Shown in pieces: positions 467 through 1,618 of a DNA stretch of 3,108 bases. The notes under the pieces are model-generated. The model was not told the origin of the DNA. It searched no databases and saw only the letters and a program-made list of their open reading frames with translations. A program made the position numbers and the translations under genes. The stretch is from Escherichia coli (GTDB lineage: Bacteria > Pseudomonadota > Gammaproteobacteria > Enterobacterales > Enterobacteriaceae), in assembly GCF_003334785.1 (NCBI RefSeq), contig NZ_QOWV01000052.1; one strand, given 5' to 3'. Within the stretch, counting starts at the first letter, position 1, and every line of letters begins with the position of its first letter.

Positions 467-1618
467 ATGGACAAAAAATTCATACTGGATCTTACTGTAA
501 ATACGACTGATCCAAAAAATAATAAAGAATTCCTCTGGCTTAGTTACAGTATAAATAATTTAAGTTCGGTAAAATATGAAAAATCATACTGGATGACACT
601 GGAAAAAAGATGTCTGTCTTTATTCAGTGAAAACGGATATGATCTTCAGACAGGTGTATGGTTCTGTCTTATTTCTTCTCATCTGCATAGTTGGGAAGGA
701 CTGGCAATTGCCTCATGGAAATTTGCTGATTCATTTGTTAAACAAAAAAAATGCTGGCCTCCGTCTACGGCCACTCAGATGCGGGCAAATATTCTTGTCT
801 GGTATATTAAAAATGTTATTCCTGTCATACAGACATTGCCTGACGATGAAAAAACTCACTCCTCATTAACTTTACTGGAGGATGCATTAACATTATTGAT
901 GGAGCTTGAGTATAATCTTCTTTCAGGGAAATTTTTTATTATTTCTGACATGTTGACTGAACTCAGAAGACAAAATGGTGATGACACTGAAATTTCTGAT
1001 TCTGAACAACATGCTTCTGCCCCCCCTGATACAGAAAATATTAAGCCTGTTAGCAGAGTTTTGTCCTCGGATGTTAAATCAAATGATATTCCGGTACAAA
1101 AGAATAACGTGTCAATAAAGGATTGTGAAAAAACACACAGATATTATAACGTAATTTATTTTATATCAGGTGTTTTATTAACAGTTTTCTTAAGTTATTC
1201 ATGCAGGCCAGAAACAGCACTGAAACTCAAGAGAGCTATGCCAGATGGTTTCCTTACTGAAATGCTTATGAATTATTCAGGGTGTTCGGAAATTACGCCG
1301 GATTCAACAGACTCCTGGACTCAACTCAGCAAGAAAATCGATGATTTTACAGAAACACTGAAAACAATTGAGAATAATGGCGATTATATTACCATATCCA
1401 GATTAAAAACAATTGCTTATGATATGAAGAGTACTTTTCTGGAGAATGATACACCTGTGAATGTAAGAATATCAAAACTGTATAATAACATGAGTATGGG
1501 TAAAGAGGATATCAACAGAGAACTGGAAATAATACAACGTAATATTAATAAGTTTAATTGTGAGATTAGTGAGTTGAAACTTAGAGCTGATAGTTCATTA
1601 AAGGGTAAGGAAAGATGA
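467..1618 (+). CDS. ImpA_N-like domain single-pass membrane protein (TssA/VasL-like architecture), 383 aa
   Basis: Uninterrupted 383-codon ORF starting at the first in-frame ATG after the stop at 449-451; AT-rich codon usage matches its neighbours. Residues ~40-125 (W-MTLEKRCLSLF...YDLQTGVWFCL...EGLAIASWKFADSF...CWPP) resemble the ImpA_N pattern of type VI TssA-family proteins (W...L..LL..DLR.a.W...GL.G.A......WP), recognised from memory. A single hydrophobic stretch YNVIYFISGVLLTVFLSYS (aa ~226-245, nt ~1142-1201) predicts one TM helix. The C-terminal ~135 aa is charged and coiled-coil-like. No strong Shine-Dalgarno sequence is present. Confidence 0.7.
   Translation: MDKKFILDLTVNTTDPKNNKEFLWLSYSINNLSSVKYEKSYWMTLEKRCLSLFSENGYDLQTGVWFCLISSHLHSWEGLAIASWKFADSFVKQKKCWPPSTATQMRANILVWYIKNVIPVIQTLPDDEKTHSSLTLLEDALTLLMELEYNLLSGKFFIISDMLTELRRQNGDDTEISDSEQHASAPPDTENIKPVSRVLSSDVKSNDIPVQKNNVSIKDCEKTHRYYNVIYFISGVLLTVFLSYSCRPETALKLKRAMPDGFLTEMLMNYSGCSEITPDSTDSWTQLSKKIDDFTETLKTIENNGDYITISRLKTIAYDMKSTFLENDTPVNVRISKLYNNMSMGKEDINRELEIIQRNINKFNCEISELKLRADSSLKGKER

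Follow-up and report, generated by a model that had tools for sequence, protein, structure and literature searches.

The 3,108-nucleotide stretch of Escherichia coli DNA considered here (assembly GCF_003334785.1, contig NZ_QOWV01000052.1; hereafter the window) contains, at positions 467-1618 of the plus strand, an open reading frame (ORF) with an ATG start that encodes a protein of 383 amino acids. Judged from its sequence, this protein belongs to the TagA/TsmA class of TssA-like proteins, of which it is a compact and divergent representative, and its gene lies downstream of a complete type VI secretion system (T6SS) cluster of the aai type. The best explanation for the data as a whole, which we consider probable, is that the gene holds a conserved place as the last structural-accessory gene of aai-type clusters, here on a virulence plasmid of the enterotoxigenic E. 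coli (ETEC) type, and that its product is a TagA/TsmA-class accessory of the aai T6SS that would stop and hold the sheath, by analogy with TagA of enteroaggregative E. coli (EAEC) and of Vibrio cholerae. The gene is already domain-annotated in RefSeq and its kind is already known. What should interest specialists is its pairing with a short-form TssA, which sequence comparison indicates to be consistent in the aai (i4b) lineage and which is the one unusual feature of the gene.

The ORF is a real gene, far beyond chance, since it has 55 close homologues, 205 relatives at the level of representative sequences and low ratios of nonsynonymous to synonymous substitution (dN/dS). Most of the close homologues that span both domains of the protein carry precomputed matches to PF06812 and PF12486. 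The 205 relatives (E <= 1e-3) were retrieved in a HMMER scan of 1.84 billion representatives, a search that grades continuously into proteins of 440-470 residues which, like TagA, match in two stretches. RefSeq lists the product as WP_087896513.1, 'VasL domain-containing protein', the alternative name for the gene being 'type VI secretion system ImpA family N-terminal domain-containing protein'. The gene and its parts are the following:

467-1618, plus strand: TagA/VasL-class ('class B' TssA-like) accessory T6SS gene, recognised from the ORF, the RefSeq annotation and the Pfam VasL and ImpA_N matches
467-991, plus strand: N-domain with the ImpA_N fold (residues 1-175), predicted to be cytoplasmic and the expected site of docking on the TssA cap or the sheath end
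992-1114, plus strand: acidic disordered linker (residues 176-216), fast-evolving, delimited by AlphaFold2 confidence, dN/dS and variable length in alignments
1115-1204, plus strand: long helix (residues 217-246) with hydrophobic residues 226-246, a predicted membrane anchor (hydropathy, AlphaFold2 helix)
1205-1615, plus strand: compact helical VasL domain (residues 247-383), from Pfam PF12486, AlphaFold2 and dN/dS
744-751, plus strand: A8 homopolymer in the codons CAA AAA AAA (Q93 K94 K95), incidental

An earlier reading of the window, made from the letters alone (the original prediction), had proposed an ImpA_N-like N-terminal domain, a single transmembrane helix and a coiled-coil tail, the architecture of VasL-type TssA relatives, and most of this proposal is borne out. 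The Pfam ImpA_N profile (PF06812) matches residues 14-112 with an independent E-value of 9.8e-6 (26.1 bits), and the VasL profile (PF12486) matches residues 278-365 with 5.3e-8 (33.4 bits, model positions 55-141 of 147). The sequence pattern on which the N-terminal assignment had been based, W...DL(Q/R)..VW...GLA...WP(P), is present with all its elements where they had been placed (YWMT at residue 41, DLQTGVW at 59, EGLA at 77, CWPP at 96). These fall where conservation within the family is highest: W42, G57-Q61, G63, W65, G78 and C96-W97-P98 are invariant across 18 homologues. The ImpA_N assignment is also supported by comparison of the structure with TssA; searches of Protein Data Bank chains by sequence, with the single protein or with an 18-sequence profile, gave no match, and the link to TssA at this level comes from structure comparison only.

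In the AlphaFold2 model, built on a 56-sequence alignment (mean predicted local distance difference test score, pLDDT, 84.5), a helical N-domain (residues 1-175, pLDDT >90) is followed by a disordered, acidic linker (residues 181-216, pLDDT <50), a long helix (residues 217-245) that holds the hydrophobic segment, and a helical C-domain (residues 248-382, pLDDT 73-90). The only hydrophobic peak of the protein lies at residues 226-246 (Kyte-Doolittle 19-residue mean 1.66), every other segment remaining at or below 1.2. An equivalent single segment is found in 56 of 56 family members, EAEC TagA included, and its G235 is near-invariant (at least 90 % conserved). Across the family, lysines and arginines flanking this helix are more frequent on the N-terminal side (3.7 vs 1.7 on the C-terminal side), a bias seen in 44 of the 56 sequences (p 6e-9); the flanking charges of the window protein itself, 3 vs 4, are uninformative. 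The tail is a 137-residue all-helical VasL domain rather than the coiled coil that had been proposed. Its last helix (residues 346-382) can be read in a heptad-like register, hydrophobic residues occupying 8 of the 11 a/d positions, and an extended coiled coil is putative. This domain includes the VasL family motif Y-I-T-I-S-x-L-K-T (residues 307-315). It also contains two cysteines, C273 and C365 (nucleotides 1283-1285 and 1559-1561), that are invariant in the 18 close homologues; the C-terminal region of EAEC TagA contains none.

Class B TssA-like proteins (TagA/TsmA) are described as an ImpA_N domain, followed by a transmembrane or hydrophobic region and a VasL domain of unknown function (PMC6745524; PMC7545191). 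The window protein has the ImpA_N domain, the hydrophobic region after it and the VasL domain, and its gene adjoins a T6SS cluster. The long TssA with a VasJ C-terminal domain is missing as a partner; such co-occurrence is a reported correlate of the TagA family, outside its definition. The protein is called compact and divergent because its VasL match is partial and its Pfam scores are low compared with the EAEC TagA control.

The A8 run is indeed present within the gene, as had been noted, and is incidental because orthologues do not keep it: the tract is broken up or shorter in those of SCU-105, EAEC 042 and locus L009. A role as a phase-variation switch was ruled out, the corresponding orthologue codons being different (CAT AGA AAA; GAA --- AAA; GAA GAT TTA).

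Linkage to an aai-type cluster

The original prediction had seen no core type VI gene beside the ORF and took it to be orphaned from any type VI cluster, perhaps as a repurposed module. Within the 3.1-kb window core genes are in fact absent; in the source replicon, however, tssH lies upstream, its end 1,648 bp from the start codon. Two plasmids, NZ_AP022179.1 (pWP7-S17-ESBL-04_2, 94 kb) and NZ_CP069544.1 (FDAARGOS_1248, 81 kb), are 100 % identical over the entire window, and both carry a complete T6SS cluster upstream of the gene (tssB, tssC, hcp, tssE, tssF, tssG, vgrG, DUF6931, PAAR, tssA, tssJ, tssK, tssL, tssM, tssH). The gap after tssH consists of two elements:

1-126, plus strand: 3' end of an IS3-family transposase fragment (pseudogene), which parts tssH from the gene (RefSeq, NZ_AP022179.1, L001:14177-15126)
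127-466: 340-bp spacer of about 50 % GC between the IS3 fragment and the gene

The orphan appearance is an artefact of the window, because the window starts inside the IS3 remnant, and the idea of a repurposed module, which rested on orphan status, falls with it. The insertion sequence (IS) fragment has a GC content of 50.9 % and gives an NCBIfam transpos_IS3 match on the translation of 22-180.

The same arrangement recurs well beyond these two plasmids. Plasmid pSTEC299_1 has the same layout with a gap of 701 bp, and the aai island of EAEC 042 has an identical gene order with 4.2 kb of IS debris between tssH and the VasL gene; in SCU-105 this debris measures 1.75 kb. In chromosomal copies the gene likewise lies downstream of tssH. 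Synteny is kept down to 21-29 % identity: a relative with 29 % identity starts 79 bp past tssH, one with about 21 % starts 3 bp past clpV, another distant one overlaps clpV by 4 bp, and a 463-residue relative follows tssM in a cluster of vgrG, DUF6931, PAAR, tssA, J, K, L and M. A position after tssH/clpV (once tssM) is thus found in every locus with enough flanking sequence; the contigs of two relatives, P0060 and P0065, are too short to inform on their contexts.

From these comparisons the cluster is assigned to the aai type (subtype i4b, E. coli 'T6SS-3'), because the gene order of the EAEC 042 aai island is identical and its VasL gene is 67 % identical. The AAI/SCI-II cluster is listed as subtype i4b, 'T6SS 3', in PMC5422975. 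Nomenclature is in conflict on this point, the pSTEC299_1 cluster being called 'T6SS-2' in one paper (PMC10711316) and aai-type clusters 'T6SS-3' or i4b in others (PMC10562709, PMC5422975). The aai/T6SS-3 locus, a system whose mechanism is little understood, is a marker of enteroaggregative E. coli that is also found on plasmids of the ETEC type and of the STEC (Shiga toxin-producing E. coli) type.

Base composition agrees with this linkage. The GC content of the gene is 34.1 % (29.2 % at third codon positions, GC3) instead of the approximately 30 % first estimated, and it fits the range of the adjoining T6SS genes (32.7-43.7 %, PAAR alone reaching 53.7 %). A common origin of gene and cluster is supported by the low GC of both, and a foreign origin of the gene relative to the cluster was ruled out by the agreement of GC and GC3 with the cluster genes.

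At megablast sensitivity the gene is present in 32 of 5,426 complete E. coli genomes, where plasmids account for 27 of its 33 places; every copy is annotated as a protein-coding gene, with none flagged as a pseudogene. Pairwise comparison of the window gene with four orthologues gives dN/dS values of 0.13-0.34 for the N-domain, 0.19-0.27 for the C-domain and 0.58-0.73 for the linker (overall 0.22-0.37). Both folded domains are under purifying selection. Among the E. coli copies, all of which have IS debris upstream, the folded domains still show values of 0.13-0.24 at dS up to 0.84-1.06.

Across 13 plasmids the spacer keeps 99-100 % identity, because a recombination block running to about nucleotide 800 includes it. 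Relative to pSTEC299_1 (L002), the window is 99-100 % identical over positions ~77-800, a stretch that takes in the spacer and the first ~110 codons, and beyond ~800, in the remainder of the gene and in the ORFs that follow it, identity drops to 72-94 %. By sequence, this is a recombination mosaic with a breakpoint within the ImpA_N coding region. The spacer was also considered as a regulatory element or a small RNA and ruled out in both roles, given that the block extends into the gene, that the fold z-score is -0.04 and that there is no Rfam match. A promoter scan of the plus strand upstream of 467, with counts no higher than those of shuffled sequences, gave no sigma70-like site, and no terminator was found by scanning after 1618.

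The state of the cluster differs between the two identical plasmids. On pWP7-S17-ESBL-04_2 tssM is frameshifted (L001:7866-11271; the ORF ends at 11045, 1,059 residues), possibly through a sequencing error, and on the FDAARGOS_1248 plasmid it is intact (L014:2869-6273, 1,134 residues). Going by these sequences, the T6SS is probably dead on the former and potentially functional on the latter.

Proposed sheath holding and the short-form TssA

By analogy with known TagA proteins, the most likely function of the protein is that of a membrane-anchored stopper and holder of the extended sheath, a function known only from TagA of EAEC and V. cholerae. The hydrophobic helix would fix it in the inner membrane. 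Once the growing sheath reaches the opposite membrane, the cytoplasmic ImpA_N domain would capture the distal end, either through its TssA cap or by the sheath itself, and this capture would halt polymerisation and keep the sheath extended until firing. The partner may thus be the short-form TssA or the sheath, and the VasL domain could lie on either side of the membrane. Such a hold would raise efficiency, with secretion possible without it. This accessory status agrees with the literature, because aaiA-P are reported to be enough for secretion of AaiC/Hcp (Dudley 2006, via PMC6730261) and TagA is described as non-essential and as optimising T6SS activity (PMC6745524; PMC7545191; PMC6730261).

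The TssA encoded in the cluster is clearly of the short form. It has 358 residues, scores 226 bits against TIGR03363 (cutoff 160.85) and only 77 bits against TIGR03362 (cutoff 230), and resembles the short TssA of Burkholderia cenocepacia in two matches, one to its N-terminal domain (6HS5) and one to its C-terminal ring domain (6H8F/6HS6); as a control, the EAEC Sci-1 TssA passes the long-form TIGR03362. Short-form TssA is also encoded in the EAEC 042 aai cluster and in the distant clusters L013 and L017. In the survey of 100 clusters by Bernal et al. (2021; PMC7896307), TagA occurs with long TssA, in groups 1 and 2 of the phylogeny, and the dichotomy published there sets long TssA with TagA against short TssA with TagB or TagJ. 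The supplementary dataset includes E. coli 042 once, as the group 2 reference, and Pseudomonas putida is the basis of the group 4B sheet, which has columns for TagP, TagB and TagL; aai-type clusters therefore seem not to have been sampled. A name of the TagB or TagJ type is carried by no annotated gene of the aai-type clusters examined, a statement on annotations only, as no search for TagB or TagJ was made. Within the limited literature that could be searched, no paper noting a pairing of short TssA with a TagA-like protein was found.

With this pairing, a case is at hand against the rule by which the form of TssA dictates the mode of sheath stabilisation. A bolder proposal, which we put forward tentatively and with more doubt than belief, is that aai-type (i4b) systems unite a short TssA with a TagA-like membrane anchor and so break the published dichotomy; the protein would either clamp the distal sheath end via a short TssA cap or have its compact VasL domain in the periplasm and play a role not described for TagA. 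If a clamp acting through the short TssA cap proved true, i4b systems would count as short-TssA machines in which sheaths have long residence times.

Several points weigh against a TagA-like stop-and-hold function. TagA is known to partner with a long TssA that carries a VasJ C-terminal domain, so that with a short TssA both partner and mechanism may differ. The Pfam scores are low next to those of a genuine TagA, and the VasL match is limited to model positions 55-141. Every E. coli copy has IS debris between tssH and the gene, and the scan gave no promoter-like site, which leaves expression putative. The charge bias around the helix suggests a true transmembrane segment in the N-in/C-out orientation, with a periplasmic VasL domain, and is at odds with the description of TagA as peripherally associated (PMC7545191). 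Finally, the support for the function of this particular protein comes from sequence and structural models.

The topology argument is the starting point of a rival explanation within the same family, which we hold to be rather unlikely. Here the protein would be bitopic in the inner membrane and have its VasL domain in the periplasm, acting as an envelope-site marker or sensor or as an inhibitor of sheath assembly, and would operate with a short TssA, unlike the TssA-long/TagA clamp. The family-wide positive-inside bias, the run of about 21 hydrophobic residues within a 29-residue predicted helix, the short form of the partner and the reported block of T6SS killing by TagA overexpression in V. 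cholerae are all in its favour, as is the invariant pair C273/C365, absent from EAEC TagA, which could form a disulfide and hence indicate a periplasmic location. However, the window protein's own flanking charges are neutral on this point, and in the literature TagA is peripherally associated, with C-terminal fluorescent fusions visible at the cell periphery. Another rival holds that the gene is a relic uncoupled from its operon: IS insertions would have cut it off, leaving it poorly expressed or silent and without contribution to the T6SS, the system of WP7-S17-ESBL-04 being dead through its tssM frameshift. The IS3 fragment and 50 %-GC spacer after tssH, the longer debris in EAEC 042 and SCU-105, the lack of a sigma70-like site in the upstream scan, the frameshift in NZ_AP022179.1 and the reported sufficiency of aaiA-P (PMC6730261) are what one would expect of a relic. 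Yet the gene is annotated as coding in 32 of 32 complete genomes that carry it, folded-domain dN/dS stays at 0.13-0.24 among copies that already have the debris, and tssM is intact on the other identical plasmid. In addition, the aaiA-Y block is AggR-activated according to a review's summary of Dudley 2006 (PMC6730261), and the 042 orthologue would fall inside this block by its position. We consider the relic explanation unlikely.

The notion that the protein is a second, divergent core TssA, serving as a cap or baseplate subunit, has the common ImpA_N fold and a weak TIGR03362 match to recommend it. This match amounts to 23.6 bits against a cutoff of 230.1 and covers the N-terminal part only, and TIGR03363 gave no match in the NCBIfam scan. 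The full-length TIGR03362/TIGR03363 match, including the oligomerising C-terminal domain, that marks a core TssA is thus missing; the protein lacks a ring-forming C-terminal domain, its searches of the Protein Data Bank gave no sequence match, and the cluster already encodes a full short TssA. Membership of the core TssA proteins was rejected on the NCBIfam cutoffs and is effectively refuted. A TagA/TsmA-class accessory with a stop-and-hold role stays our preferred explanation for the gene.

Flanking genes and plasmid cargo

Downstream of the gene, the window contains three further features:

1784-2299, plus strand: 171-residue papain-like (C39/C70-like) cysteine protease, misnamed 'kinesin'
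2411-2644, plus strand: truncated 5' part (77 residues) of a 187-residue gene, of which pSTEC299_1 has an intact copy (L002:17262-17825)
2660-3013, plus strand: IS2/IS3-type tnpA (OrfA) fragment bounding the island remnant (RefSeq 'transposase' pseudogene at 2720-2995)

The protease, hidden by its 'kinesin' misannotation, is judging from its sequence a plausible candidate for a cargo effector of the T6SS cluster. The 187-residue protein, 'DUF8616' in some records, is cut at ~2645, just before the tnpA fragment; its full-length form has the His/Cys motifs 'YVIAHGN...LFSCYSG' and a weak match to Peptidase_C80 (E 0.049). The tnpA fragment scores 143.9 bits with the NCBIfam IS2 repressor TnpA model, below the cutoff of 229.

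Further along NZ_AP022179.1 (L001:20000-33108) are found eatA, which encodes a SPATE toxin, a chaperone-usher fimbrial operon of the CS15/CS22/SEF14 type, a regulator of the ANR family and a helix-turn-helix regulator of unassigned family. This gene content identifies the replicon, at the sequence level, as an ETEC-type virulence plasmid, and the ANR gene hints that control of the AggR/Rns type may possibly reach the aai-like T6SS. On pSTEC299_1, the T6SS island is followed a few kb downstream (L002:23120-23716) by a gene for a type III effector of the AvrPphF family and by hha, amid several small unannotated ORFs, and the region looks like mixed effector-like cargo.

Comparison with known TssA-like proteins

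The closest counterpart in a well-known strain is the orthologue in the aai island of EAEC 042 (WP_000359994.1; NC_017626.1, 4915659-4916813), which aligns at the identity given above over the full length (384 vs 383 residues). Its cluster has the same order and a short TssA, and IS elements likewise displace the gene from tssH. It differs in being chromosomal, in the pheU island, instead of plasmid-borne, and in having no A8 tract. No characterisation of this orthologue was found in the searchable literature.

EAEC TagA itself (EC042_4550), a protein characterised by experiment, resembles the window protein in the order of its parts (ImpA_N, disordered linker, single hydrophobic segment with a central glycine, VasL) and in the position of its gene at the edge of a T6SS cluster. 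BLASTP aligns the two with 26 % identity over residues 15-147 and a collinear VasL core, hhalign gives a probability of 80 %, and the 56-sequence alignment, of which EAEC TagA is part, has G57, G78, T309, S311 and K314 as invariant residues. EAEC TagA is longer (455 vs 383 residues) and matches Pfam far better, with 61.7 bits for ImpA_N and 129.8 bits for VasL (model positions 2-146) vs 26.1 and 33.4 here. Moreover, its partner is a long TssA (TIGR03362, 532 residues), whereas that of the window cluster is short. RefSeq breaks EAEC tagA (NC_017626.1, 4884070-4885437) into three 'incomplete' pseudogene fragments, ImpA_N, POTRA and VasL; the DNA is one uninterrupted ORF for 455 residues with strong ImpA_N and VasL matches.

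TagA/VasL of V. cholerae (VCA0121, TsmA), compared by its description, has the class B layout, is localised to the membrane, and has a limiting and stabilising effect on sheath extension (Schneider et al. 2019; Stietz et al. 2020). Its cluster is of subtype i1 and has a long TssA. The short-form TssA proteins, such as that of B. cenocepacia (6HS5/6HS6/6H8F) and TssA1 of Pseudomonas aeruginosa (class C/TsaB), possess an Nt2 domain and a ring-forming C-terminal domain. The window protein has neither and carries, in their place, the membrane anchor and the VasL domain.

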